NCBI GenBank assembly: GCA_024679065.1
Contig: JAGIQG010000043.1
Location: 2,294,001 to 2,358,000 of the forward strand
DNA length: 64,000 nt
Direction of reading: 5' to 3'
Origin: Sphyrna mokarran
Taxonomy: Eukaryota
Shown: piece after piece, positions 9,237 through 43,120 of the stretch
How positions within the stretch are numbered: position 1 is the first letter of the stretch
Layout: every line of letters begins with the position of its first letter
Program-made: the position numbers and the translations under genes
Notes under the pieces: model-generated
The model's database searches: none
Seen by the model: the letters and a program-made list of their open reading frames with translations, nothing else
What the model was told of the DNA's origin: nothing

Positions 9237-9314
9237 TCATTTCCGGATCTTCTTTTTTGACCTTTTTTCTAGTGCAGCTAAGTCCAGGGTGGCGTAGAGA
9301 GGTCCACCCTGAGA
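9237..9314 (-). CDS. Gene A terminal exon ([25 protein letters not shown]), ITIM-like LYATL
   Basis: Acceptor tttctcag (an in-frame alternative lies 6 nt downstream), phase-0 entry, YxxL motif, TGA at 9239-9237. Confidence 0.78.
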   Translation of the reverse strand, partial: SQGGPLYATLDLAALEKRSKKKIRK

Positions 9315-12300
9315 CTGAGAAATATATTCAATGGATATGATTAAAATAAAGGACTGTTTCCAAAAATTCATTTCAATATATTTTATTATAAGGGGTTCAA
9401 TGCACTCACCTGTATTTTATGCTGCGTTTTCAAGTTCGCCTCTGTTTGACTGTGATCCCCTGTGTGTCAAGAGTTAAACTATGAATTGAAATGTCACACA
9501 AGCTATAGAATCTATAAGGACATGGAAATATCGGGCACCAATGACTACTCGTATGTCAACAGTTTGAGTGGTGCTTAATAGAGTCACAAGTAGGCTTACA
9601 TTAACTCTGCAAGGAAGTTACTGTAAAAATTCCATCCTTGCCACATCCGGTACTTGCTTTATTGCACTGATGGAAGATTTAGCATCGCCAACTCACCTGT
9701 GTAGCGCCTCGTTTGGACTGTGGGCGGAGCACGTGGAAGAAACACACGCACACACAGGGAGAACATGCAGACTCGGCATAGACAGATACCCAAGCCAGGA
9801 ATCGAACAAAGGTCCCTGATGTTGCGGGAGTGCAGTGCGAACCACTGTGCCACCGTGCCGCTGCTTTCGGCTGTAGGGCTACAATCATTAACAGCCCACC
9901 TAAATTTCGTCAACACGACAGATATTCCACAATTCTTCAGAGGAAGTTAGATATGACATTGTAGGTGAAGTCGATAGGATTGCATTCACTGGAGTTTGGA
10001 AGTGTGAGAGGTGACTTCAAGGAATCTTATAAAATTCTGACAGGGTTCGGTAGGGTAGATTGAGAAACAATGTTCCCGATGGTTAAGGAGTCCAGAACGA
10101 GGGATAATAGTTTGAGGTTACTGGAGAATCCTTTTAGAACTAAGGTGAGGGGAAATGTCTTCACCGAGAGGGTGGAGAATACATGGATTCACTACCACAG
10201 AATATAGTTTAGGCCAAAACATTATGTGATTTCAGGAAGAAATTAGATATACCTCTTGGGACTAAAGGAATCAAATGGTATGAGGGGATGGAGGATCAGG
10301 ATGTAGAGTTTGATTATCTTGTGTGGTCATAATGAGCAGCAGAGCAGGTTCGAAGGGCCGAATGGCATACTCCTTCTTCTAGTTTCTATGTTAATAAATG
10401 TAGACAGACAACTGGCAATTATCAGTTAATTGTAGCATCCTCCATAAAAGAGGCTGCAACGAATCAGTCTTTTTGCTAAACAGGTAAATAGTCTTCTCAG
10501 GAAGAATGCGTAATTGGTTCCATCGTATATGTTATTCTTATGTTGTTTTGTGCCAATGAATACAAGGCCAAAAGCCTCGATGATATGTTTTTGTTTGACA
10601 AAGCTCAAGTACTCCATTTATTGAAATTTTCTTTCAATCATGTCTCTACAGTTAACTGTCAGTACCAATCAACTGGTGCATGCATCATAGAAACACTTCC
10701 ACCGATCAATTTCCACTTCATTCTTTTTTAATTCTGACATTTAATCGCTGCCAACATTCTAATGAAACTTACCCATTTGTCGCTCCTTATATCCCTCTCG
10801 CTGCCTTCTCTGGCTCAAGCTAAAATTGGATATGGGAGAAGAACACCAAACAAATGTTATATCTGGCCTTTCATATCTCAGATGCTGCACATTATTGAAA
10901 GTAGAATTGTCCAGAGATCTTATATAAAATCAGAGAGAACAGAGGAACACATCGTGGAATCAGTTTTCGGATTGAAATAAGTCTGACAAAATATAAGATA
11001 GAGAAAGAGGGGACAATGAACAATGTTAAACTTTGCACACTGTTCTCTTACTCACGTGTCATTCCGGGATCCTATTTCTCTGTCTTCTAAAATAGAAGAA
11101 CGTACGATTAGCTAATTAAAAACTGCAAAGAGGAAATCATATTGAGGAAAACAAAGAAATTAAAGTGTCTCAGATAACCATTAATTTTCACCTGATCTGC
11201 AGTGTTTACAAATCCAAATGGAAATAAGGACCGATAGCAGAATCAATGTGACCAGGACAGTGATTTGAACAGGAACCGTCTCTCCGCACCATTCTATAGA
11301 GATAAAAGAACACTTAGAAACTGCCACCGGTCAAATCATTCTTCTCCGGGGTTCTCTGACCAAATTAAAAATGAAGAGTCACCAAAATAACGGGTGAATG
11401 TGGAAAATGAAACATTGCTGGTGGGATGGAGAGTGGAATTGATGAGACAATATTTGCTTGTGGAGATCAATTAAATGACAGCACTGTCAGAGTTGTCCTA
11501 AATTCACAGTCTATCAGATTGTATTAGACCATAAGATCAGGAGACACAGGAGCAGAAATAGGTCACTCTGCCCATGAGCCTGCACCTCCATTCCATCATG
11601 GCTGATATATTTCTCACACTCATCATTCTCTTGCCAATTCCCCATAACCCTGATCCCCTTATTAATCAAAAAACTTTCTATCTTTGTCTTAAAGATACTC
11701 AATGACCTGGTTTCTTCAGCCTTCTGCGGCAAAGAGCTCCACTGATTCGCCACTCTCTGCTGGTTCCTCCTCAAATCTGTTTTAGAGGATCCCAATACAT
11801 GAGACAATAATAAATCAAATCAAGTCATAGCGTCATAAAATCATTGAGTTTACAGAATGGAAACAGGCCCTTCGGCCCATTTTTTTCCCTGCAATCCTTT
11901 AAATTAAATCCCTAAGCTAGTCCCAGTTGCCCACATGTGGCCCATCTCCCTCTATATTCTTCGTATGCATGTAACTATCTAAATGTTTTTTTCAAGATAA
12001 AATTGTACCCCGCTTCTAATACTATCTCTAGCAGCTTGTTCCAGACAATCACCACCCTCTGTTTGAAAAAAAATGTCCCCCTGGATGCTTTTGTATCTCT
12101 GCCCTGTCATCTAAAACCTATGCCCTCAATTTTTTGACTCCCCTATCTTTGGGAAATTTATTGACTATCTAGCTGACCAGTGCCCCTCATTATTTAATAG
12201 ACCTCTATGAGGTGACCACTCAGCCCCCTACACTCCAGTAAAAAGAGTCCCAGTCTATCCAGCCTCTCCTTATAACTCAATCCATCAAGTCCCAGTAACA

Positions 12301-15300: not shown

Positions 15301-18300
15301 CTACCTTATAACAAGCTAATCTTTCTCTAAACACTATCTGTGACTGTAACACTACGTACTGCACACCTTCCTTTCATTCTCCCCTATGGACTCGATGAAA
15401 TTCACGTTTTGTCTATAATATTTATGTTATATAAATATAATATATATTTATATAATATAAATATTGATATAATATTTGACTATATTGGGCGGCCTATAGT
15501 GTATTCTATAGGCCGCCCAATAGTGACAGGGAAGTTGAGGTGCAGATAGGGAAACAGATACTGGAGAGATGTAGAAATAACAGAGTTGTTGTGATGGGAG
15601 ACTTCAATTTCCCAAACATCGACTGGAATATCCCAAGGGTAAGGGGTTTGGATGGGGAAGAGTTTGTTAGGTGTGTTCAGGAGGGTTTCCTGACACAGCA
15701 CGTGGACAAGCCTACGAGAGGAGAGGCTGTACTGGACCTGGTACTAGCTAATGAACCATGACAGGTGATGGATCTCTCGGTAGGAGAGCATCTTGGGGAT
15801 GGAGATCATAATTCTATCTCCTTCACCCTTGCATTGGAAAAGGATAGGATCAGGCAGGCTAGGAAGGTGTTTGTCTGGAATAAGGGGAAATATGAAGACA
15901 TCAGGCAGATGTTGGGGCAAATAAACTGGAAGGAGGTGTTCTTGGGGAAAAGCACAGAAGGAAGGTGGCAGATATTCAAGGAATGCTTGTCTGGAGCTCT
16001 GCACGACAACGTTCCGGTGAGACAAGGAGGTTTTGGTAGGTCGAGGGAACCGTGGTGCACGAAGGCTGTGGTGAACATAGTCAGGAAGAAAAGAAAGGTG
16101 TATAAAAGGTTCAAAGAGCTAGGAGATGTTGGGGATCTAGAGAAGTATAAGGCTTATAGAAGAGAGCTTAAAAAGGAAATTAGGGGAGCCAGAAGGGGTC
16201 ATGAGAAGGCCTTGGCTGGTAGGATTAAGGAGAATGCCAAGGCCTTCTACAAATATGTGAAAAGTAAAAGGATGAGAAGAGAAGGGATAGGACCTATAAA
16301 AGGTGAAGGGGGAAAAGTCTGTATGGAACCGGAAGAAATGGCAGAGGTGCTTAATGAGTACTTTGCCTCAGTATTCACGGTGGAAAGTGATCTGGGAGGA
16401 TGCACTACAAGTTTGCGGCAGACTGAAAAGATTGAGTATGTAGATATTAAGGAAGCGGATGTGTTAGAACTTTTAAATGCTATCAAGATAGACAAGTCTC
16501 CGGGACCAGATGGGATGTACCCCAGGTTATTGTGGGAGGTGAGGGATGTCGTTGCAGAGCCCCTGGCGATGATCTTTGCGTCGTCGATGGAGACGGGAGA
16601 GGTTCCAGAGGATTGGAGGATTGCGGATGTGGTCCCTATTTTCAAGAAAGGGAACAGGGATAGTCCTGGAAATTACCGACCGGTGAGTCTGACCTCAGTG
16701 GTTGGTAAGCTGATGGAGAGGCTTCTGAGGGACAAGATTTACGAGCATTTGGAGAAGCTTAGGTTGATTAGAAATAGTCAACATGGTTTTGTAAAAGGCA
16801 GGTCGTGCCTTACGAGCTTAATTGAGTTCTTCGAAAATGTGACTGAACACATTGACGAAGGATGAGCAGTGGACGTGGAGTACATGGACTTCAGAAAGGC
16901 ACTTGACAAGGTCTCCTATGCGAGACTTCTTGAGAAGGTGAGAGGGCATGGGATCCAAGGGGCTTTGGCCTTGTGGATCCAGAACTGGCTTGCCTGCAGA
17001 AGGCAGAGGGTGGTTGTGGATGGCTCTTTTTCTGCATGGAGGTCGGTCACCAGTGGAGTGCCCCAGGGATCTGTTCTAGGACCCTTGCTGTTTGTCATTT
17101 TCATAAATGACCTGGATGAGGAAGTGGAGGGATGGGTGAGTAAGTTCGCCGATGACACGAAGGTCGGTGGTGTTGTGGATGGTCTGGAGGGATGTCAGAA
17201 GTTGCAGCATGACATCGACAGGATGCAAGACTGGGCGGAGAAGTGGCAGATGGACTTCAACGCGGATAAATGTGTTGTGGTCCATTTTGGCAGATCCAAC
17301 GGGATGAATGAGTACACTATCAAAGGTAGGAGTCTTAGCTGTGTGGAAGAGCAGAGGGATCTTGGGGTCCGGGTCCATAAGACTCTCAAATCGGCCTCCC
17401 AGGTGGAGGATGTGGTTAAGAAAGCTTACGGTGTACTGGCCTTCATTCATCGAGGGATTGAGTTCAGGAGTCAGGAGGTAATGCTGCAGCTTTATAGGAC
17501 CCTTGTCAGACCACACTTGGAGTACTGTGCGCAGTTCTGGTCGCCTCACTATAGGAAGGACGTGGAAGCTATTGAAAGGGTGCAGAGGAGATTTACAAGG
17601 ATGTTGCCTGGATTGGGAGGCATGCCTTATGAAGACAGGTTGAGGGAGCTGGGACTGTTCTCCCTGGAGAGACGAAGGTTGAGAGGCGACCTGATAGAGG
17701 TTTACAAGACGTTGAGAGGAATAGATAGGGTGGACTCTCAGAGACTATTTCCCAGGGCTGAAATGGTCGCGACGAAAGGGCACAGATTTAAGGTGCAGGG
17801 AAGCAAGTACAGAGGGGATGCTCGGGGTAAGTTTTTCACTCAGAGGGTGGTGAGTGAATGGAATCGGCTGCCGTCTGTGGTGGTCGAGGCGAACTCGCTG
17901 GGGTCTTTTAAAAGACTTCTGGATGAGTATATGGGATCCAATTGTATTGGGGGTTATAGATAGTCTATGGCTGGGTAGGTTTTGATGTGTTCGGCACAAC
18001 TTGTGGGCCGAAGGGCCTGTTTGTGCTGTAGTGTTCTATGTTCTGTGTTCTATGTCTGTAGAGTACTCAAGAAAATGTACTTTTCATTGAAATTTGATAC
18101 ATGTTCAATAATTAATCAAATGAAATGAAACACACATACGCTCAGAGATGCACTTGCGCGCACACAGATGCACACAAACACGCACACACACAAGCACACG
18201 CACACACGCAGATGCTCACACACACACACACGGACACACACACACATACAATCATACACACATACACACACGCACACACATACACAATGCACTTACACTC

Positions 18301-19904
18301 ACATATACATTTACACACACACGCACATTCACACAAACACACAAATCACACACACGCACACACACACAAACACACTCAAATATATATTTACACACACAAA
18401 CATATATATCCCCATATGGCTGAGATCTAATGAATTAATCCAATTGTCTCAAAATTAGAATAGAATCCTTCAATGCACAGACTAACATCTCACCTTTCCG
18501 TTTTTCAGTTGTTTTGAGCTTCCACACACTCTTCGTCCAGTATTTTACTGGAGTCCCCACTTGAACAATGCAAGTACAGACAGCGCCGCTTCTCCAAGTT
18601 ACCCCCGACACCATGACATGACTTCTGATGCTGTAGGTCCCGTTCCCATCCATTGTCCCAGGATCACTCGATCCTTCAGTGACCAGACCGGAAACATTCC
18701 AGAAAATAGCAATTTGGTTGGAAGAAACTCCACTGACCAAACACACTAAGGGCATGGCATCATTCACATTCAGCTCAGTTGGCGGGACAAATACCAGCAC
18801 TGCCGTCTTGTTGGTAGAACTGACTGGACATAAATTGGGACAAAGTTAACAATTAATTTACATCAATTGGTATTGCTGTGCACAGTCTGGATTAATTTCA
18901 CTTGCTCTCTTACCTCCAACCTGTAACCTGGGTCCATTCTGGAGCGGTGCAGAGCTAGGGGCATAGCTAGGTGCATAGCTACAGTAGTAGGAACCCGAGT
19001 CATTCGCCCGGGCATTGCGAATTTCCAGAATCAATTCACGATTGTCGTGGCCTATTTTAGAAATAAATTTACAATCGGCCTCCTGACAGGGTGGGATACT
19101 GATTACTTTCGGGATTTCACCAACATTTTGTTTGTACCACAAATAGTTTCCCACGAATACCACCTCGAATGCCAGTTGACAGGTTAAATCCACCGTGTGA
19201 CCGACTTCGGCTGTCACTGTGAAGAGCCTTTGAGATAGAGAGGACTCAGAATCTGTAACTAGAGAGATTACTCAAACATTACCACATATTTCAACATTGG
19301 ATGCTGCCATTTGAAAAAAAAAACGGTGTAAATTAAGAACAATGTCATTATTATCTTCCATTATACTTCTGGAGATTATTTCCCAAGTTGTGTTTTCTTC
19401 GCTTGAAAGGAGAAAGCAGAAAATCCTCTGTACCGATCACTAAGTCATATTTGCAGTGCTGTAGCTGGGCGGCATGGTGTTTGGCACCTTTGGTTCACAG
19501 CGCTGTGGACCCGGGTTCAATTCCTCGCTTGGGTCACGTCTGTGCACGTTCTCCCCGTGCCTGCATAGGCGTTTCCACCCACTCATCGAAACCTGTGCTG
19601 GTTCGGTGCATTGGCCGTGCTAAATTCTGCCTCTGTGTACCCGCACTGGCGCAAGAGTGTGCCGACTAGGGTCTTTTCATTGTAACTTCATTGCAGTGTC
19701 GATGGAAAAATAAAGATTACTAGTCACAAATAAGGCTCACATTAACACTGGAACGTGAAATTCCCCTGGAAGCCGCCTTGTGACACTAACGCTTAAAAAA
19801 ACTAACTTAGCTGCTGCCATTTTAAATATCTCACCTGGCAAATACTCACCATGAACCCAAAACGCATGCAGAATGAGTATCAGGGATAAAGATTGCTGGG
19901 GCAT
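9237..19904 (-). CDS. Gene A: non-rearranging antigen-receptor-like IgSF receptor (leader-V-C1-TM-cytoplasmic ITIM-like), 8 coding exons, predicted 343 aa
   Basis: Exons 19904-19850, 19252-18914, 18823-18494, 11293-11192, 11086-11056, 10819-10773, 9459-9410 and 9314-9237 all have GT-AG borders. Phases chain consistently (1,1,1,1,2,1,0) to give 1032 nt with no internal stop. Confidence 0.85.
9410..9459 (-). CDS. Gene A exon 7, cytoplasmic ([17 protein letters not shown])
   Basis: Acceptor acacag, donor CAG|GTGAGT; open only with phase-1 entry; phase-0 exit. Confidence 0.72.
9975..10392 (+). mobile_element. Old CR1-type 3' end fragment
   Basis: Degenerate RT C-terminus (FFTQRV/WNSLP-like) and a gggccgaatggc..ttctatg tail. 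Confidence 0.6.
10773..10819 (-). CDS. Gene A exon 6, cytoplasmic ([16 protein letters not shown])
   Basis: Acceptor aattttag, donor G|GTAAGT; phase 2 to 1, exactly bridging the flanking exons. Confidence 0.72.
11056..11086 (-). CDS. Gene A exon 5, cytoplasmic ([10 protein letters not shown])
   Basis: Branch-like ctaat, acceptor ttcttctattttag, donor GTGAGT; phase 1 to 2. Confidence 0.7.
11192..11293 (-). CDS. Gene A exon 4, stalk Cys + transmembrane ([34 protein letters not shown])
   Basis: Pyrimidine-rich acceptor ttttatctctatag, ~22-residue hydrophobic stretch followed by basic residues, phase 1-1, donor G|GTGAA. Confidence 0.85.
11535..12335 (-). mobile_element. Two adjacent old CR1-type 3' fragments
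   Basis: ORF 11514-11807 ([14 protein letters not shown]) and typical reverse tails (acaggcccttcggccc). Confidence 0.6.
13242..13435. repeat. Palindromic (hairpin) element, ~95-nt arms centred on AGCT at 13336-13339
   Basis: aaaacagaaattattggaaaatttcagcagctctgacagc..tttcgagtctaga pairs with tctagactcaaaa..gctgtcagaacttctgagattttccagcattttctggtttt. Confidence 0.75.
13700..14190 (+). mobile_element. tRNA-derived shark-type SINE with an internally repeated body
   Basis: A/B-box-like head (gtggtacagtggtt...ttcgattccc), 52-bp body units and a CR1-like 3' tail. Confidence 0.7.
15499..18055 (+). mobile_element. 5'-truncated CR1 LINE (endonuclease C-terminus + RT) in the C-TM intron of gene A
   Basis: Three co-framed ORFs separated by two TGA codons (15759, 16863). 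Motifs [22 protein letters not shown] and FADD; (TTCTATG)n-like tail. Confidence 0.95.
18130..18410. repeat. Imperfect (CA)n microsatellite region
   Basis: Direct inspection; source of the His/Thr-rich spurious ORFs. Confidence 0.9.
18494..18823 (-). CDS. Gene A exon 3, Ig C1-set-like domain
   Basis: VLVFVPP...PLVCLVSG...IFWNVSG...[11 protein letters not shown]...[12 protein letters not shown]. Acceptor gtccag|TC, donor G|GTGAG. Confidence 0.92.
18914..19252 (-). CDS. Gene A exon 2, Ig V-set domain with degenerate J-like G strand
   Basis: Acceptor ttacag|AT. Motifs [26 protein letters not shown]; ends [10 protein letters not shown] at donor G|GTAAG; 339 nt. Confidence 0.93.
19850..19904 (-). 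CDS. Gene A exon 1, signal peptide [18 protein letters not shown]
   Basis: ATG in aaaATG context, hydrophobic core, phase-1 donor G|GTGAGT typical of Ig leader exons. Confidence 0.85.
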
Positions 19905-33777: not shown

Positions 33778-33822
33778 TTAAAGTTTTGGATCCTCGTTAA
33801 AGGCCAAGCGAGCGTAAAGCGT
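33778..33822 (-). CDS. Gene B probable terminal exon (TLYARLAFNEDPKL*)
   Basis: Branch-like gctaac plus acttttcatccacag acceptor, phase-0 entry. LYA-x-L parallels gene A LYATL, and an AATAAA follows ~155 nt after the stop. Confidence 0.7.
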   Translation of the reverse strand, partial: TLYARLAFNEDPKL

Positions 33823-36800
33823 CTGTGGATGAAAAGTGGTCTGTTAGCGTGATACGCACCTTTATTATAGTGAGAGGTGAGACCATTGAATCCCCCCAGT
33901 CTTCCGCCTACCCTCACTTTATTCAATCGGTTCACGGCTGTAAGATTACTCAACTCACAGTCACCTATCAATATTGAATAATATTAATTGAATTAATCCA
34001 CTCCCTAATATAAATCTATCTGTCGCGCCTTCGGGAGTTCCAATTGCCCAATATTCTATATAGATTTTTCGTGACCAGAATTCCTGCACCGCGTTCTGTG
34101 CAGAAGTGTTTCGAGTTGATTTATTACTGTCACATATTAGTATGCATTGAAATGTAATGATTCTTGCCGAGTACACAGATAAAGTGTACCGCGTATGGAG
34201 AATGAAAGGAGAAGGTGCATATTGTAGTGTTACGGTGATAGGTAGGCTATAGAGAATGTTCAACTTAATATGAAGTAGGTCAATTCTAATGTCTGATGGC
34301 AGCAGGGAAGAAGCTGTCCTTGCGTGACCTCAGAATTATATATCTTTTTTCCCGAAGGAAGAAGGTGGAAAAAAAAACATATCCAAGGTGCGTGGGGTCC
34401 TTGATAATGGTGGCTGTTTTTATAGAAACATAGAAGATACTAGCAGGGAGAGGTCATTTGCCCCTTTGAGTCTGCTCCAGCATTCATTATAATCATGACT
34501 GATCGTCCAGCCCAATCGTCTAATCCTAATTTTTCCCCATAACCTTCGCTCCCAATTGCTATATCCAGCTGCACGTTGAATACATTCAATATTTTGGCAT
34601 CAGCTACTTCCCGTGGTAATGAATTCCACAGGCTCACCGAATGAAGAAATATTTCCTAACCTCCGTCCTAAATGGTCTATCCCAAAACCTCAAACAGTGA
34701 CCCCTGATTCTGGGCTCCCTCCACTATCGGGAACTTCCTTCCTGTATCTACCCTGTTTAGCCCTGTTAGAATTTTAATAGTCTGTGAAATCCCCCCTCAT
34801 TCGTCTGAACTGCAGTGAAAACAATTTTAACCTAATCAATCTCTCCTCATACACCAGTCCCGCGATCCCTGGAGTGAGCCTGGTAAACCTTCGTTGCACT
34901 CCCTCCAGAGCTAGAATATCCTTCCATAGTGAATGCATTTGGTATGTCTCCTGCTCTGTCAAAGACTACAAGAACTGGTCTAGTCCCGTTATTCAAACCA
35001 GCCTCCCCTCCATTGACTCTGTCCTCACGTCCTGTTGCCTCGGGAAAAAGGAGCCAACAGAATCAAGGACTCCCCTCCCCCACGCACTCCAGACATTCTG
35101 TCTTCCACCTTCTTCCGTCGGGAAAAAGATACAAAAGTCTGAGGTCAGGTACCAACCGACTCAAGAACAGGTTCTTCCGTGCTGCTGTCAGACTTCTGAA
35201 TGGACCTAACTTGCACTAAGTTGATCTTTCTCTATACCCTAGGTATGACTGTAGCACTATATTCTCCACTGTCTCCTTTCCTTCTCAATGAACGGTATGC
35301 TTTCTCTGTATAGTGCGCAAGATACAATACTTTTCACTGTATCTCAATACATGTGGCAATAATAAACCTAATCTATGTACTCAATGAATGGTGTACTTTG
35401 CCTGTGTAGCGTACAAGGAATAATATTTTCACTGTATCCCAATACATGGGACAATAGTAAATCCAATCTATCTACTCTGTGAACGATATGCTTTGTCTGT
35501 ATAGTGTACAAAAAACAATACTTTTCACTGTATCCCAACACATGTGACAATCATTAATCAAATGTACTGTACTCTACGAATAGTGTGCTTTGTCTATGTA
35601 GCGCGAAAGAAACAATACTTTTCACTGTACCCCAATACATGTGACAACAATAAATCAAATCTATGTAGAACATAGAACATAGAACATAGAACACTACAGC
35701 ACAGAACAGGCCCTTCGGCCTTCGATGTTGCGCCGACCAATATAAAAAGCAATGCCCCTCCAAACTAAAACATTCCCTTCTCTTCCATATACTTATCAAC
35801 TAACCTCTTAAACGCCACCAAACTTGGCGCATCTACAACTGCTGCAGGCAGGGCATTCCACTCCCGAACCACCCTTTGGGTAAAGAACCTACCTCTGATA
35901 TCCGTCCTATAACTATCACCCCTTAATTTAAAGCTGTATCCCCTCGTGCTAGCTTTCTCCATCCTAGGAAAAAGGCTATCACTGTCCACCCTATCTAAAC
36001 CTCTAATCATCTTATATGTTTCGATATGGTCCCCTCTTAGCCGCCTCCTTTCTAACGAAAACAACCTCAAATCCCTCAGCCTCTCTTCATAAGACCTGCC
36101 CTCCATACCAGGCAACATCCTGGTAAACGTCCTCTGTACCCTCTCCAATGCCTCCACATCTTTCTTATAATGTGGGGACCAGAACTGCACACAATACTCC
36201 AAGTGCGGCCGCACTAGAGTTTTGTACAGTTGCAACATGACGTTGCGGCTCCGAAATTCAATCCCCCTACCAATAAAAGCTAAGACTCCATATGCCTTCT
36301 TAACAACCTTCTCGACTTGACTGCCTACTTTCAGGGATCTATGCACATACACACCAAGATCCCTCTGTTCATCAAGACTACTAAGAATCCTACCATTAGC
36401 CCTATACTCTACACATTTATTATTCCTGCCATAGTGCATTACCTCACACTTTTCCACATTAAACTCCATTTGCCACCTCTCGGCCCAGCTCTGCAACTTG
36501 TCCAAGTCCCTCTGCAAACTATAACACCCCTCTTCACTATCTACCACTCCACCGACTTTAGTGTCATCTGCAAATTTACTAATCCATCCTTCAATACCCT
36601 CATGCAGATCATTTATAAAAATTACAAACAGCAGGGGCCCCAAAACAGACCCCTGAGGTACACCACTTGTCACCGAACTCCACGATGAATATCTCCCATC
36701 AACCAGCACCCTCTGTCTTCTATCTGCTAACCAATTCCTAACCCAATTAGCTAAATCACCCTCTATCCCATACATCTGCATTTTCTGCAGAAGTCTTCCA

Positions 36801-39800
36801 TGGGCCACCTTATCAAACGCCTTACTAAAGTCCATATATACCACATCAACCGCCTTACCCCCATCCACCTCTTTGGTCACTTTTTCAAAAAACTCAATGA
36901 GGTTAGTAAGGCACGACCTACCCTTCACAAAACCATGCTGACTATCCCCAATCAATTCATTTCTCTCTAAATAACTATAAATCCTATCCCTAATAATTCT
37001 CTGCAATACTTTGCCCACAACAGAAGTAAGACTCACTGGCCTATAATTCCCTGGAAGGTCTCTCTTCCCCTTCTTGAACAACGGGACCACATTCGCTATC
37101 CTCCAGTCCTCCGGAACCACACCCGTAACCAACGACGACCTGAAGATCAGAGCCAGAGGCTCTGCAATCTCCTCTCTTGCCTCGCAGAGAATCCTAGGGT
37201 AAATCCCGTCCGGCCCAGGGGACTTATCCAACTTCAAACCCTCGAGAATACCTAGCACATCTTCCTATCTACTTCAATACTTTCCAGTTTGCTACCCTGT
37301 ACCTCAGTGTTCTCCATAACTACATTTACATCACCCTGCGTAAATACCGAAGAGAAATATTTATTCAGTACCTCTCCAATCTCTTCGGGCTCCACGCACA
37401 ACTTCCCACTGCTGTCTATGACTGGCCCTAGTCTTGTCCTAACCAATCTTCTATTCTTAACATATCTAAAGAAAGCTTTAGGATTCTCCTTAATCCTATC
37501 AGCCAAAGTCTTCTCGTGTCCTCTCTTAGCTCTCCTCAATTAACTCTTTAGCTCCCTCCTGGCTAATCTATAGCTATCCATTGCACTAACCGAGCCGTCA
37601 AGCCTCATCCTGACATAAGCCTCCTTTTCCCTTTTAACCAGCAAAGGATGTATTCATGTACTCCATGAATTGTGTGCTTTGTATTTTGCGCAAGAAACAA
37701 TACTTTTCACTGTATCCCAATACACATGACAATAATAAATCAAATCAAATCAAATCAAATGTTCCACGAATGAATTAAACAAAAAAGCTAACTTGAAAGA
37801 AATTATTCGGCCTCGAAGCTGTCCCTGTCCACGGAAACCACCAGGTTTGTTGAGGTTTTCTAGAATTTTCCGTGTTAGTAATGAATTCTAAACCGCGGAT
37901 TAATAATTAATGAAAAGTATCAGGGTGGTACATTAAAAAAAATCCATTCATTCACCTCTTTATTCTGTTTGTGTTCTCTGGATTCTGTCAGTTCCTCATC
38001 GCTGTTCGCGGTTCCTGTTAGAAAGAGGGATTTAAACTGAAATTTAAAATGGATTAATTTCACACTGAACCCGCTCAGAAGTGTCAATATCTCGGAAATA
38101 GATGTTTGGATTGAGAGCGCCGCGGATAACAGATTCCCTCAACAATCACTACCTCTCTGCCGGTTCCTGCAGATCCTTCTTCCGGCCGCAAGGATCAATC
38201 CCAGAAGGAGAAGTGCCGCAGCCGACAAACCCCCGGAAAACAATAAATGACAGGTTGGCGAGAACGGAGAATCTGCAAAAAAGCATTGAACTTTCGCTCA
38301 ACAGCAATCAAATGTGGAAATAATTAAACAAACAAGGATCTTGTTCAATCTAACTGTCCAATTCGACCGGAAAATGGTAAAACATTTGTGCACTTTCCCT
38401 ATCATGGAATAGAGTCGCACATTTACAATAGAACGCAAGGCCAGGCAAAGAGTGATACTGACAGAGAGACTGAGGACTTTTATATAGGGCATACAGAGAG
38501 ATGGAGGGAGAGAGTGAAAGATTCAGGCAGAGAATAATCATGTAATCCCATAGTGCAGAAGAAGACCATTCGGGCAATCGAGTCTGCACCACCCTATCCC
38601 CGTCACCTCGCGTATTTACTCTGCTAATCCTTCTGACTCTCAGCTCAATTTAGCATGGCCAATCCACTTATCCCGCACACTTTGGGCACTAAGGGGCAAT
38701 TTAGCATGGCCAATCCATTTAACCCGCACATCTTTGGACACTAAAGGACAATTTGTCATAGCTAATCTAAATAACCTACATATCTTCGATACTAAGGAGC
38801 AATTTACCATGGTTTATCCACCTAACTTTCACATCCTTTGACATTAAAGGCAATTTACCATGGTTGATCCACCCAGCCTTCACATCCTTTGACACTAAGG
38901 AGCAATTTACCACAGCTGGTCCGCTTAACCTACACACCCGTTGACATTAAGGGGCATGTATTATGGCTGATTCACCTAACCGACACATCCTTTGGCACTA
39001 AGGGACAATTTAGCATGTCCAATCCACCTAACCCGATATCTTTGGACAAAAGGTGTAATTTAGCAATGGCCATTCCACTTATCCCCCACATCTTTGGTCA
39101 CTAAGGGACAAATTAGCATGGCCAATCCACCTAACCTGCACATCTTTGGAATTTGTGGGAAAACAGGAGCCCCCGCGGGAAGGCCGATGTAATTGAATGG
39201 GATTGAAGCACTGGGAGGTGAAGGGATGAATTGCTGTGCTGAGATAGAGTGCAATACTGGGGATATAATCACACATTTCAATTTTACACACTGACAGATT
39301 GGTCCCTGATCTTCAGATGCATCATGTTGTCCATGCCAGATACAAGAAGTGGAAGAGGAGAAGAGGCCATTCGGCCTATCACGTCTATTCTGCCATCCAA
39401 CATCACCATGCCTCACCATGTTTACACACTTCACTTCTCCGCTCTTTCTCTTACTCATTAATCTATCCGCTCTCACAAATGTGTTTCAGTGATTGAACAT
39501 AAAGGTTCATAACGGTAGTGAAGTAGAGGCAAAATATCAGAAAATGAAACTGGGAGGATTATGATGGGACAGTGCTGATTTAGATATTCATGGATGCCCG
39601 CAGAGACATTTGTAATTTACAAAATTAGGCTGCTTTTAGTAAAGTGTCCCGTTATTATTAAATGGATTGAAAAATAGCCATTGGGAATAGGTACCTTTCT
39701 GAGATGAGAAAGTGTCACTGAGAATACTTTCATTGTAGTTGACCCGAACGGTGCAGGTACAGCGAGCACCGCTTCTCCAAGTTTCCGCCGAGACGCTAAT

Positions 39801-41457
39801 GTAACTCCTGACGGTGTAGGTCCCGTCTGGCTCCACTGTCCCCGAATCGGTCTGTCCCTCGGTATCCCGCCCTGAAACACTCCAGCAGATGGGAAAGGAA
39901 TCGGGAGGCACGCCTCTGACCAGGCACATCAACAGGACTCTTTCCATGGCGGGAATCTCATCCAGCGGCGGGGTGAGGAGGAATATGGAGGGAGAACCCG
40001 CTAAATCCGGCAAATGAAACGGAGAACACTCATTAACTGGTGGAACAGGACACCTTACTTGCTCTGAGATACCCACTGCAATGGAATATTTATGGGGTTT
40101 ACCTGTAATCACTAATTTCGAGCCATTTCCGAATATTTGGGTCATGTTCTGATAAATGTGCTTTGCACAGTAATACATCCCAGAGTCATTTATTCGGGAA
40201 TCCGTAATGATTAGTGAATAAAGACGCCCTTTTTCAGAAATCTGGCTGGAAAATCTCCCCTGAGCTTGGCTGTGCTGGGACGCTCTGTAAATGAAATCCA
40301 TACCGTTTCTCCCCCTCTGTCTGTACCAGAAGACAGGACCAGCAGCTTGACGCTGGATGCGGCAGTTGAGATTAACAAGACTCCCCGCAGGGAGCGTCTG
40401 AACCGGCGGAAACTGGGACACGCTGACCTGAGACATTGTACCTGGGAAAGAGAAAGAGAGAGAACAGCAGTCACCTCAGATTATGGAGCATTGGCTGAAT
40501 CCCTACAGTGCAGAAAGAGGCCATTTGGTCCATCGAGTCTGCACTGATCACAATCCTACTCCCGCAATATTTACACTTCTAATCCCCTGTTAGGAAGGAG
40601 CAGTGTAGCGTGGCTATTCAAACTAACCCACGCACCTTTAGAATTTGGGAGAAAGAGGAGCAGCAGGAGGAAACCCACGCAGACATGAGGAGAACGTACA
40701 AACCCTGCACGGCCATCCAATCCTGGCGGTGTAATGTGATAGTGTTAACCACTGTGCCGCTGAGATGTTCCAGCACTTTCTATTTTTGCCTCCGTTGTTT
40801 TCCTCCGTTGACTTTGGGCGCCAAAGTCTGTTCGAGAATTTATAACTGAGTCTGAAGTTTTACTTGTAAAATTTTCTCTTCCACGTGGCCAATATTGTTA
40901 AGGGAGCCTATTCACACTGCATACCTCAGGAGAAATGGCAAATCCGATTATTTCCATTCTAATCATTGTTATGAACCGACGTTGCATTTTCTCAGTAACA
41001 TTTGATTCATTGTTAAGTTAAACTTGCACGCTAAATCACAACTTAGAGAACCGCTGAAGCCCGGGATGGGGGACCGTTCAGCCCTTCCAATTTGAGTTAA
41101 ATCTGTGAAAGATTTCGCTCACACTATTGAATTTCCCCCTTCAAATTTGTATCCAATCCCCCATTTTGATAGTTCCATTTCCCCCGTTTGAAAGTTCCTA
41201 TAGGATCTACTTCCTCCAGCCTTTGAGGCAAAGACTTCCAGATCACAGCAGCTCAGATGCGTTAAAAAAATCCCCTAATTTCCATCTCTGTTACTATTAC
41301 CAAACTCATATTCCCTTGGTTCCAGTAATTCCTGCCCATGCAAACAGTTTCTGCCTCTTCGCTCTATCCGCAACCTTCTCCCCATTCTATCTGAATATAA
41401 TGAGGATATCTCACCCTGGAAGAGATGGAACAATGCACAGATACCGACGAAACCCAT
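33778..41457 (-). CDS. Gene B: non-rearranging antigen-receptor-like IgSF receptor (leader-VJ-C1-TM-cytoplasmic ITIM/ITSM-like), 6 coding exons, predicted 303 aa
   Basis: Exons 41457-41415, 40441-40103, 40000-39695, 38272-38153, 38014-37956 and 33822-33778. Phases 1,1,1,1,0; 912 nt with no internal stop. Confidence 0.83.
34430..35370. mobile_element. Old CR1 3' fragment (- strand, ~34430-34925) abutting a Rex1-type 3' end (+ strand)
   Basis: ALEGVQRRFTRLTPG on -; LLPSGKRYKSLRSGTNRLKNRFF on +. Confidence 0.65.
35285..35665 (+). repeat. ~96-bp tandem array of a LINE 3'UTR unit (4 copies; a fifth at ~37655-37760 beyond the CR1)
   Basis: cttttcactgtatcccaatacatgtgacaataataaatc recurs at ~95-96-nt spacing. 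Confidence 0.75.
35666..37645 (-). mobile_element. 5'-truncated young CR1 LINE in the last intron of gene B
   Basis: 497-aa RT ORF (35765-37258) plus a frameshifted upstream part; (GAACATA)n tail on +. Interrupts a ~96-bp tandem array. Confidence 0.95.
37956..38014 (-). CDS. Gene B exon 5, cytoplasmic (GTANSDEELTESREHKQNKE)
   Basis: Acceptor ctctttctaacag, donor GAG|GTGAAT; phase 1 to 0. Confidence 0.78.
38153..38272 (-). CDS. Gene B exon 4, stalk Cys + transmembrane (DSPFSPTCHLLFSGGLSAAALLLLGLILAAGRRICRNRQR)
   Basis: Acceptor ttttttgcag, hydrophobic stretch followed by an Arg-rich stop-transfer segment, phase 1-1. Confidence 0.87.
38640..39150 (+). repeat. ~52-bp tandem array in the C-TM intron of gene B
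   Basis: Same unit, about 10 diverged copies. Confidence 0.85.
39695..40000 (-). CDS. Gene B exon 3, Ig C1-set-like domain
   Basis: SPSIFLLTPP...LMCLVRG...CWSVSG...PDGTYTVRSYI...TWRSGARCTCTV. Acceptor atttag, weak donor G|GTACCT. Confidence 0.9.
40103..40441 (-). CDS. Gene B exon 2, single-exon VJ domain
   Basis: QVSVSQFP...VNLNC...VFWYRQ...GRFS...YSLII...NDSGMYYC-AKHIYQNMTQI-FGNGSKLVIT. Strong acceptor ctctttcccag, donor G|GTAAA. Confidence 0.95.
41415..41457 (-). CDS. Gene B exon 1, signal peptide MGFVGICALFHLFQ
   Basis: Strong gcaATGG context and phase-1 donor G|GTGAGA. Splices to GTMS-QVSVSQ, a typical Ig signal cleavage context. Confidence 0.82.
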
Positions 41458-42162
41458 TGCCCTTGAGCGAGACCATGAGCGTCTGAGCCCTTGATATAAA
41501 TTTCACTGAGAACTCGCTCTTGTTCTCTCTGTGTGGGGGAGGTGTGAAAGACGCACGCCTTGTACGTGAATGAAAACACGACAGGGGTTTGAAAATAGAA
41601 CCGAGGTAGAGAGCTCTCCGCGGTTTTCCTGTTTATTACAGGCCCAGTGCTGGCGAGCATTCGGCATGTTCTCCAAAATGCCTCAAATATCTCACTCACA
41701 TCAACTACACCAGACATGGAGGGCAGAGCGCGGTTCTTCTGAATCTGGTAAGGGTTCCCAGGTTGTGGAAAAGGTGCAGTTAACTTTTCACAACGAATGA
41801 TACCAGAAATGAGAGCGTGCAACTGTCAGTGAGCCTTGAGGAGGTTGGTGTTCTGTATCTCTGAAGGAAAAATTGAAAATTGAGGGCTGATCTACTGAAA
41901 TATTTGCAATTATGAAATGGTTCAACAAGGCAGAAGTAGGATTCCAAAATATTGCAGGATGAGTTTGTCACTAAGCAGGAATTCAGGACAAAAATGTAAC
42001 TTGGAGGAATGGGGAGATATGGAAGTCGGTTGCGTAGAGAATACTTCTGATTGGATTAGAATTGATTTGGTTTCTAACTGTCACATGTATTTTAATAGAG
42101 TGAAAAGTATTGTTTCTTGCGCGCCATGCACTCAAAGCCTACTGTTCAGAGAGTACATACAA

Positions 42163-43120
42163 CTGTTTGTAATTTTTATAAATGATCTGGGTGAGGGTAT
42201 TGAAGGATGGATTAGTAAATTTGCAGATGACACTAAAGTCGGTGGAGTGGTAGATAGTGAAGAGGGGTGTTATAGTTTGCAGAGGGACTTGGACAAGTTG
42301 CAGAGCTGGGCCGAGAGGTGGCAAATGGAGTTTAATGTGGAAAAGTGTGAGGTAATGCACTATGGCAGAAATAATAAATGTGTAGAGTATAGGGCAAATG
42401 GTAGGATTCTTAGTAGTCTAGATGAACAGAGGGATCTTGGTGTGTATGTGCATAGATCCCTGAAAGTAGGCAGTCAGGTCGAGAAGGTTGTTAGGAAGGC
42501 ATATGGAGTCTTGGCTTTTATTGGTAGAGGGATTGAATTTCGGAGCCGCAACGTCATGTTGCAACTGTACAAAACTCTAGTGCGGCCGCACTTGGAGTAT
42601 TGTGTGCAGTTCTGGTCCCCACATTATAAGAAAGATGTGGAGGCATTGGAGAGGGTACAGAGGAGGTTTACCAGGATGTTGCCTGGTATGGAGGGCAGGT
42701 CTTATGAAGAGAGGCTGAGGGATTTGAGGTTGTTTTCGTTAGAAAGGAGGCGGCTAAGAGGGGACCTAATCGAAACATATAAGATGATTAGAGGTTTAGA
42801 TAGGGTGGACAGTGATAGCCTTTTTCCTAGGATGGAGAAAGCTAGCACGAGGGGACACAGCTTTAAATTAAGGGGTGATAGTTATAGGACGGATATCAGA
42901 GGTAGGTTCTTTACCCAAAGGGTGGTTCGGGAGTGGAATGCCCTGCCTGCAGCAGTTGTAGATGCGCCAAGTTTGGTGGCGTTTAAGAGGTTAGTTGATA
43001 AGTATATGGAAGAGAAGGGAATGGTTTAGTTTGGAGGGGCATTGCTTTTTATATTGGTCGGCGCAACATCGAAGGCCGAAGGGCCTGTTCTGTGCTGTAA
43101 TGTTCTATGTTCTATGTTCT
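42163..43120 (+). mobile_element. CR1 3' fragment ~0.7 kb upstream of the gene B ATG
   Basis: RT C-terminus in ORF 41917-43029 (from LFVIFINDL onward); (TTCTATG)n tail. Confidence 0.95.

Follow-up and report, generated by a model that had tools for sequence, protein, structure and literature searches.

A 64,000-nucleotide stretch of the Sphyrna mokarran genome (G000; C1027:2294001-2358000, hereafter the window) contains an intact gene, termed gene A, in which the V and J portions of an immunoglobulin-type variable domain lie in one exon. We consider it probable that this exon encodes the putative ligand-binding domain of a non-rearranging V–C1 receptor, that the gene likely represents the shark branch of the PRARP/VJ-C1 kind, and that its product is a predicted disulfide-linked inhibitory receptor. 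The evidence comes from the gene structure, scans for recombination signals, the genomic cluster in which the gene sits, its relatives in other vertebrates and the features of the encoded chains.

Gene A and its neighbours in the window

Pfam searches of the open reading frames in the window identified a V-set domain (E 2e-12) and a C1-set domain in gene A (Table 1), and the exons beyond these two were found using shark homologues as a guide. The six exons, all with canonical splice sites, encode in order a leader, the VJ domain, the C1 domain, a stalk Cys with an uncharged transmembrane (TM) segment and two tail portions with a TxYxxL motif, and together form an intact 303-residue open reading frame with 0 internal stops. 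Across 303 residues the product shares 79% identity with a RefSeq model from Mustelus asterias. An AG acceptor precedes the VJ exon of 339 nt and a GT donor in phase 1 follows it; within the exon a single reading frame runs through YYC, a loop of 11 residues and FGNG, in line with the germline VJ exon with an FGxG J motif that the first-pass annotation had described from the sequence. The other structural features claimed there, namely a phase-1 donor, a C exon 102 nt away (the C1 exon starts at 40000), a TM segment and a tail with a tyrosine motif, were all located in gene A. If the intron at 40001-40102 (minus strand) were retained, a V–linker–C1 variant would result; long open frames across the VJ–C1 intron also occur in several other A copies.

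A second intact gene, of type B, lies 21 kb downstream of gene A and encodes 345 residues in 8 exons with no internal stop. Its CDR3-like loop has reached 12 residues through a short tandem duplication, most B copies having 8, and is a case of germline length change without RAG. Upstream of gene A lies an A-type pseudogene with stops and frameshifts. With its VJ and C1 exons it has the layout that the first-pass annotation gave it, though a frameshift separates the J motif from the frame of the Cys. LINE-type reverse-transcriptase copies crowd the introns and spacers (window positions 15480-17960, 35768-37540, 41899-43026 and others) and could have driven the unequal crossovers behind the cluster described below.

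Table 1. Coordinates of gene A, gene B and the A-type pseudogene within the window.
Feature	Position	Strand	Evidence
Gene A exon 1, split leader, phase 1	41415..41457	-	Exon mapping
Gene A exon 2, single VJ exon, FGNG J motif	40103..40441	-	Pfam V-set; RSS scan: none
Gene A VJ–C1 intron, 102 nt, in frame, stop-free	40001..40102	-	
Gene A exon 3, C1-set domain	39695..40000	-	Pfam C1-set, E 7e-9
Gene A exon 4, stalk Cys and uncharged TM helix	38153..38272	-	Exon mapping
Gene A exon 5, cytoplasmic	37956..38014	-	Exon mapping
Gene A exon 6, TxYxxL (ITIM/ITSM-like) and stop	33778..33822	-	Exon mapping
Gene B exon 1, leader	19850..19904	-	Exon mapping
Gene B exon 2, VJ exon, variant J motif LQNG, extra Cys pair in the C'-C'' region	18914..19258	-	Pfam V-set
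Gene B exon 3, C1-set domain	18494..18823	-	Pfam
Gene B exon 4, stalk Cys and uncharged TM	11192..11293	-	
Gene B exons 5-8, cytoplasmic tail with YxxL	9237..11086 (11086-11056, 10819-10773, 9459-9410, 9314-9237)	-	
A-type pseudogene, VJ exon	61116-60785	-	
A-type pseudogene, C1 exon	60692-60391	-	

Recombination signals are absent from the VJ exons

RSS-flanked V and J segments, the trait of rearranging Ig and TCR genes, were not found in the A/B family. We counted mismatches to the heptamer–spacer–nonamer consensus up to 30 nt past the second Cys in 47 cluster V exons. The best site in this span of the gene A VJ exon had 7 mismatches and none of the 47 exons had a site with 6 or fewer, whereas the split-type V segments of this genome taken as controls (15 TCR, 1 kappa and 2 sigma) had a site with 3 or fewer in 16 of 18 cases, the two sigma segments having no site within the 30-nt span. 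This bears out the earlier statement that no RSS lies near the exon. The labels of all control loci (TCR alpha/delta, beta, IgL kappa/lambda/sigma, IgH, IgNAR, NKp30 and UrIg-like) were assigned by us from characteristic sequence motifs.

Over the whole of gene A, from the leader to the TM exon and on both strands, the best site had 4 mismatches, which is the chance level against 200 shuffles, and RSS scores in 79 V-centred cluster loci (231 kb, duplicates included) were distributed like those of shuffles; the same scan of TCR loci returned sites with 3 or fewer mismatches in 16 of 17. A lone RSS-like site with 2 mismatches, in one of the 79 cluster loci, was discarded: it is formed by a CA microsatellite that lies off the junction, in a pseudogene's CDR2 region, and shuffled cluster loci yielded 2 comparable 2-mismatch sites in 395.

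Gene A belongs to a large cluster of two alternating types

The first-pass annotation did not notice that gene A has many neighbours of its kind: with them it makes up a series of at least 71 V-exon copies, some of them broken, of two alternating types. Genome searches with V and C1 domains located at least 38 A-type and at least 33 B-type V exons on C1027, from 0.61 Mb to the contig end at 2.86 Mb (a span of 2.2 Mb). These counts are lower bounds that include pseudogenes, and identical copies as well as small-contig duplicates of C1027 (C1404, C782, C868, C891 and C851-853) were dropped beforehand. Of 70 neighbouring pairs, 51 differ in type, where shuffles give 35.3 (p ~1e-4); this alternation is explained by a duplicating A+B unit and is no proof of heterodimer pairing. 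Beside the cluster, at about 520 kb of C1027, lies an intronless rhodopsin-family GPCR gene (L090:183-1175, plus strand).

Outside the main cluster, a divergent head-to-head A/B pair was found on C894 at 2.365-2.386 Mb (L124, L077), and in the trees its A gene falls with a conserved subtype that catshark, skate and devil ray also have. Pfam searches of the surroundings of this pair (the 147 longest of 675 non-repetitive open reading frames) together with 3 of 237 open reading frames from the C1027 flanks returned just a GPCR and a retroelement fragment. Another contig, C1016, starts with a broken A copy and also carries SSR2, INTS3, VPS72 and DAP3 (4 of 4 markers), which belong to human 1q21-22; C1027 likely adjoins it. 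PEX19 and nicastrin (2 of 2 markers), of human 1q23, lie on a separate contig, C446.

Several other V-type loci of the genome were noted during these searches. An IgNAR-like V exon on C994 (L152:7115-7534, minus strand) has its V portion, a 13-residue loop and FGGG in one frame and appears germline-joined. At least five NKp30-like single VJ exons occupy 96.70-96.87 Mb of C1548 (L110, L111), a contig that carries kappa-type IgL clusters too. The UrIg-like gene L142 (C446:25.49 Mb), beside PEX19 and nicastrin, combines a VJ exon that has two Cys in the G strand with several C1 exons.

Relatives and phylogeny

Profile searches recovered full-length V–C1–Cys–TM relatives, mostly with YxxL/V in the tail, both from fishes (sharks, rays, sturgeon, bowfin, eel, salmonids, lungfish and coelacanth) and from tetrapods (caecilian, newt, turtles, lizards, alligator, ostrich and goose). 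No mammal occurs among 30 named representative matches, and the sole mammalian match in the family profile search was a weak one to SIRP (E 6e-10). The database names of the relatives are automatic ('immunoglobulin kappa light chain-like', 'Ig heavy chain Mem5-like', 'uncharacterized'), and no record among the database matches to the family bears the name PRARP.

In a C1 tree of 59 rows, which took in no TCR C, 39 family rows were split from 20 IgH, IgL, UrIg-like and SIRP rows with support of 98/97. A V tree of 62 rows, from which CDR3 and J had been removed, placed the family on one side of a weak branch (37/80). For a combined V+C1 tree of 51 rows, TCR beta C, the one TCR constant region found in 200 kb of sequence, was added and 11 rows were omitted. 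Here shark A was sister to the A sequences of sturgeon, lungfish and tetrapods (98/80), and 17 of 18 Ig, TCR, NKp30, SIRP and UrIg rows lay beyond a 95/89 branch from the family. The coelacanth row fell outside the family and joined one TCR V row weakly (85/74), and shark B, lungfish plus goose, and the ray-finned rows formed separate branches whose relationships are not settled; lungfish carries an A-like gene as well as a B-like one. All trees are unrooted.

Approximately unbiased (AU) tests rejected a grouping of shark A with all four of the IgL C domains (p 0.0008), of A+B with IgL C (p 0.0005) and of shark A with joined lambda (p 5e-6); a clade of shark A with 7 TCR alpha/delta V rows was not rejected (p-AU 0.11). 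The CDR3-like loop is 11 residues long in 30 of 30 A exons, as against 5, 9 and 11 in 8 joined lambda-type exons, and B loops vary among 7, 8, 10 and 12. Because of the AU rejections, the fixed A loop length and the wide taxonomic sharing, recent germline joining is excluded, and the sequences compared place the joined VJ state before the shark/bony-fish split, so that the label 'germline-joined' is misleading for this exon. Joining in a stem jawed vertebrate would still be compatible with the trees. The first-pass annotation had named, as the outcome that would speak for secondary joining, a V domain nested inside a shark IgL or TCR V family with split orthologues in related species; the V domain nested in neither, and no split V/J copy of the A/B family was found in the loci scanned.

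Chain features and selection

All 24 family proteins in the alignment have the stalk Cys. Genes A and B both encode an uncharged TM and tails of 38-68 residues with one tyrosine motif per chain, unlike the charged TM and very short tail of TCR chains. The first Gly of the FGxG bulge is absent from 17 of 21 B exons, which may alter V–V pairing. A model of the Mustelus homologue had a pLDDT of 74 overall and mostly 80-95 in the Ig domains, and its top Foldseek matches were Fab chains with 22-27% identity, a result that speaks to the V–C1 fold only.

Selection was assessed by simple pairwise counting of dN/dS over all pairs, with approximate CDR limits and with V exons containing stops dropped (leaving 25 of 30 A exons and 18 of 21 B exons). 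The values for C1 (0.41 in A, 0.43 in B) and for the framework (0.44 and 0.53) indicate purifying selection. The CDR-like loops gave 0.83 in A (0.56-1.18) and 0.91 in B (0.53-1.46), and since both intervals span 1, positive selection is not significant.

In 30 loci examined, 24 A-type TM exons were parsed, and 3 of them encode an arginine in the TM; in two of these copies the V exon ahead is frameshifted, and for the third no V–C1 partner was located. Since the TM-Arg copies of Sphyrna mokarran are thus broken or orphan, the repertoire looks mostly inhibitory. The orphan TM-Arg exon L241 (C1027:622516-622628, minus strand) has a B-type C1 exon 8.5 kb upstream; neither a V nor a C1 exon of type A was found close to it, and it is possibly part of a chimeric activating B gene. 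Among other sharks, Heterodontus P0008 combines a TM Arg with a short, tyrosine-free tail, and Heterodontus P0076 and Mustelus P0018 are models with a TM Arg and no tail motif.

Comparison with known receptor systems

Fu et al. are said to have described PRARP1 and PRARP2 in 2019, and Ohta et al., in the same year, amphibian VJ-C1 genes. PRARP are a pair of non-rearranging VJ genes, of V–C1 structure outside birds, with an ITIM/ITSM-like tail motif and Cys-linked dimers, and range from fish to birds. PRARP/VJ-C1 products form disulfide-linked homo- or heterodimers at the cell surface, are expressed in lymphocytes, are encoded at an MHC-paralogous location and occur as two linked paralogue types across vertebrates. 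The shark family resembles them in its single VJ exon without RSS, its V–C1 ectodomain and its ITIM/ITSM-like tail (TxYxxL in gene A, YxxL in gene B), and judged by these features and by a cited title, not by PRARP sequence, it is probably of this kind. The scale differs: chicken has two PRARP copies, and the shark has at least 71, with variable CDR-like loops and rare TM-Arg variants.

NKp30 (NCR3) shares with the A/B family a single VJ exon with a J-like motif and is multi-copy in sharks, but it has no C1 domain and an activating TM, and the NKp30-like genes of this genome form a separate clade in the V tree and lie on C1548. SIRP, too, has a V domain with a J-like motif, C1 domains and inhibitory/activating pairs; its arrangement is V–C1–C1 with several ITIMs, whereas the family has one C1, and the one SIRP sequence tested grouped apart. 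The germline-joined IgL lambda genes of sharks resemble the family in their joined VJ exon and cluster organisation, and differ in that they have no TM or tail and a variable junction length; neither an IgL-clade C domain nor a secreted two-domain chain was found in the A/B family, which has TM and tail. Germline joining of shark IgL lambda is also described in PMC12227049.

According to PMC12227049, UrIg and UrIg2 are shark genes with a split leader, a single-exon VJ and C1 domains that do not rearrange, as in the A/B family; UrIg is a secreted protein with 3 C1 domains, UrIg2 has at least 9 of them, and each is a single gene located in the MHC or in the Ig/TCR complex. The A/B family differs from them in having one C1 domain rather than three or more, a tyrosine tail and tens of copies, and the UrIg-like locus L142 groups apart from it in the C1 and V+C1 trees. 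The text available from PMC10751288 mentions PRARP a single time, calling it a VJ gene, and states that tetrapods have several known VJ-C1 genes; PRARP is not mentioned in the available text of PMC12227049, and one supplement of PMC10751288 has no match to PRARP or VJC1. A description of the shark A/B cluster was not found in the literature searched, which was available in part; subscription papers or other supplements may hold one, and Ohta 2019 may refer to shark members.

Alternative explanations

A shark-specific minicluster of germline-rejoined IgL or TCR genes would fit a V–C1 fold like that of an antibody light chain, as in the Fab matches of the Foldseek search, and would fit the kappa light chain-like names in databases. 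The first-pass annotation had raised this possibility and held the TM and the tyrosine tail against an IgL cluster, and the further data agree with that judgement: IgL grouping is rejected by the AU tests for both IgL C and joined lambda, the A loop is constant where joined lambda-type exons vary, the genes have exons for a TM and a tail, and tetrapods share the joined exon. With the joined exon also present in lungfish, sturgeon, amphibian, reptile and bird, a rejoined shark IgL cluster is ruled out, and we regard the minicluster explanation in general as extremely improbable. A rejoining of much greater age is a different matter, though still an unlikely one: in a stem jawed vertebrate, RAG could have joined a TCR alpha/delta-like V and J in the germline, and the product could have become a fixed receptor, making the family younger than RAG. 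The best single-domain PDB sequence matches are mostly TCR alpha chains, the clade with TCR alpha/delta V rows survives the AU test, the family branch of the V-only tree is weak, and germline joining is present in the same genome in IgL lambda-type and IgNAR-type genes. On the other side, the C1 domain lies far from all Ig C domains tested in the C1 tree, TCR beta C, the only TCR C domain in the V+C1 tree, stays outside the family there, TCR chains have a charged TM where that of the family is uncharged, and the linked markers are those of 1q21-22, not of the contigs with TCR (C994, C949) or IgL (C772, C838, C1548).

The family might also be an independent innate V–C1 family of the SIRP/NKp30 sort, neither a PRARP orthologue nor specially linked to antigen receptors, which we judge to be improbable. 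A comparison of language-model features gives clusters of SIRP and TAPBPL scores of 0.94-0.96, the profile search gave its weak match to mammalian SIRP, the NKp30-like genes of the same genome have single VJ exons too, and the affinity to PRARP was set by description, not by sequence comparison with PRARP. Against this, the 95/89 branch of the V+C1 tree puts the SIRP and NKp30 rows with Ig and TCR, apart from the family, and the two types, the stalk Cys, the single tail motif and the fish-to-bird range without mammals correspond to the description of PRARP. We favour a shark PRARP/VJ-C1 branch as the probable reading.

The first-pass annotation further presented the exon as the type proposed as precursor of antigen receptors before RAG insertion. 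A single-exon VJ is indeed the proposed target of RAG insertion in PMC12227049 and PMC10751288, so this holds for the exon type; special precursor status for this family does not follow. Such a claim is unsupported, given the unrooted trees, the weak V branch (37/80) and the TCR alpha/delta clade at p-AU 0.11, and because NKp30, SIRP and UrIg also have a single-exon VJ, no special precursor claim can be made for the A/B family.

Proposed mechanism

On the reading of the family as PRARP/VJ-C1-type inhibitory receptors, we propose that two chains, likely an A and a B but perhaps two alike, would pair through V, C1 and the stalk Cys in the manner of a TCR or Fab. Ligand binding could then lead to phosphorylation of the single tyrosine motif on each chain, and the two phosphotyrosine motifs together may recruit a tandem-SH2 phosphatase (SHP-1/2), which would damp the leukocyte. 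Specificity would be fixed per gene, with diversity arising from gene duplication and loop divergence and not from RAG. The minority of copies with a TM Arg and no tyrosine tail may be activating counterparts that signal through an ITAM adaptor. By analogy with the pattern seen in paired receptors, the candidate ligand would most likely be a cell-surface self protein that is mimicked or exploited by pathogens.

Implications

A bolder interpretation, which we think doubtful, is that the A/B cluster is a surviving two-chain antigen-receptor system from before RAG and a sister lineage of all Ig and TCR. If this were true, A and B chains would form TCR/Fab-like heterodimers in varying combinations; with no fewer than 25 x 18 intact, distinct V exons, sharks would have hundreds of germline-encoded binding sites, and as a model of the heterodimeric ancestor the family would surpass the homodimeric UrIg genes.

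The size of the cluster, the alternation of its two types and the variability of its loops are the notable part of the finding. Papers on the origin of antigen receptors centre, in the text available, on UrIg, UrIg2 and NKp30 (PMC12227049, PMC10751288). The multi-megabase shark cluster shows that the family dates to cartilaginous fish and grew there in the style of an NK-receptor complex, and databases currently mislabel it as Ig chains. The cluster would provide dozens of natural variants with which the existence and the ligand of a non-rearranging V–C1 heterodimer could be tested, and it is a candidate source of inhibitory leukocyte receptors, a class poorly known in sharks.
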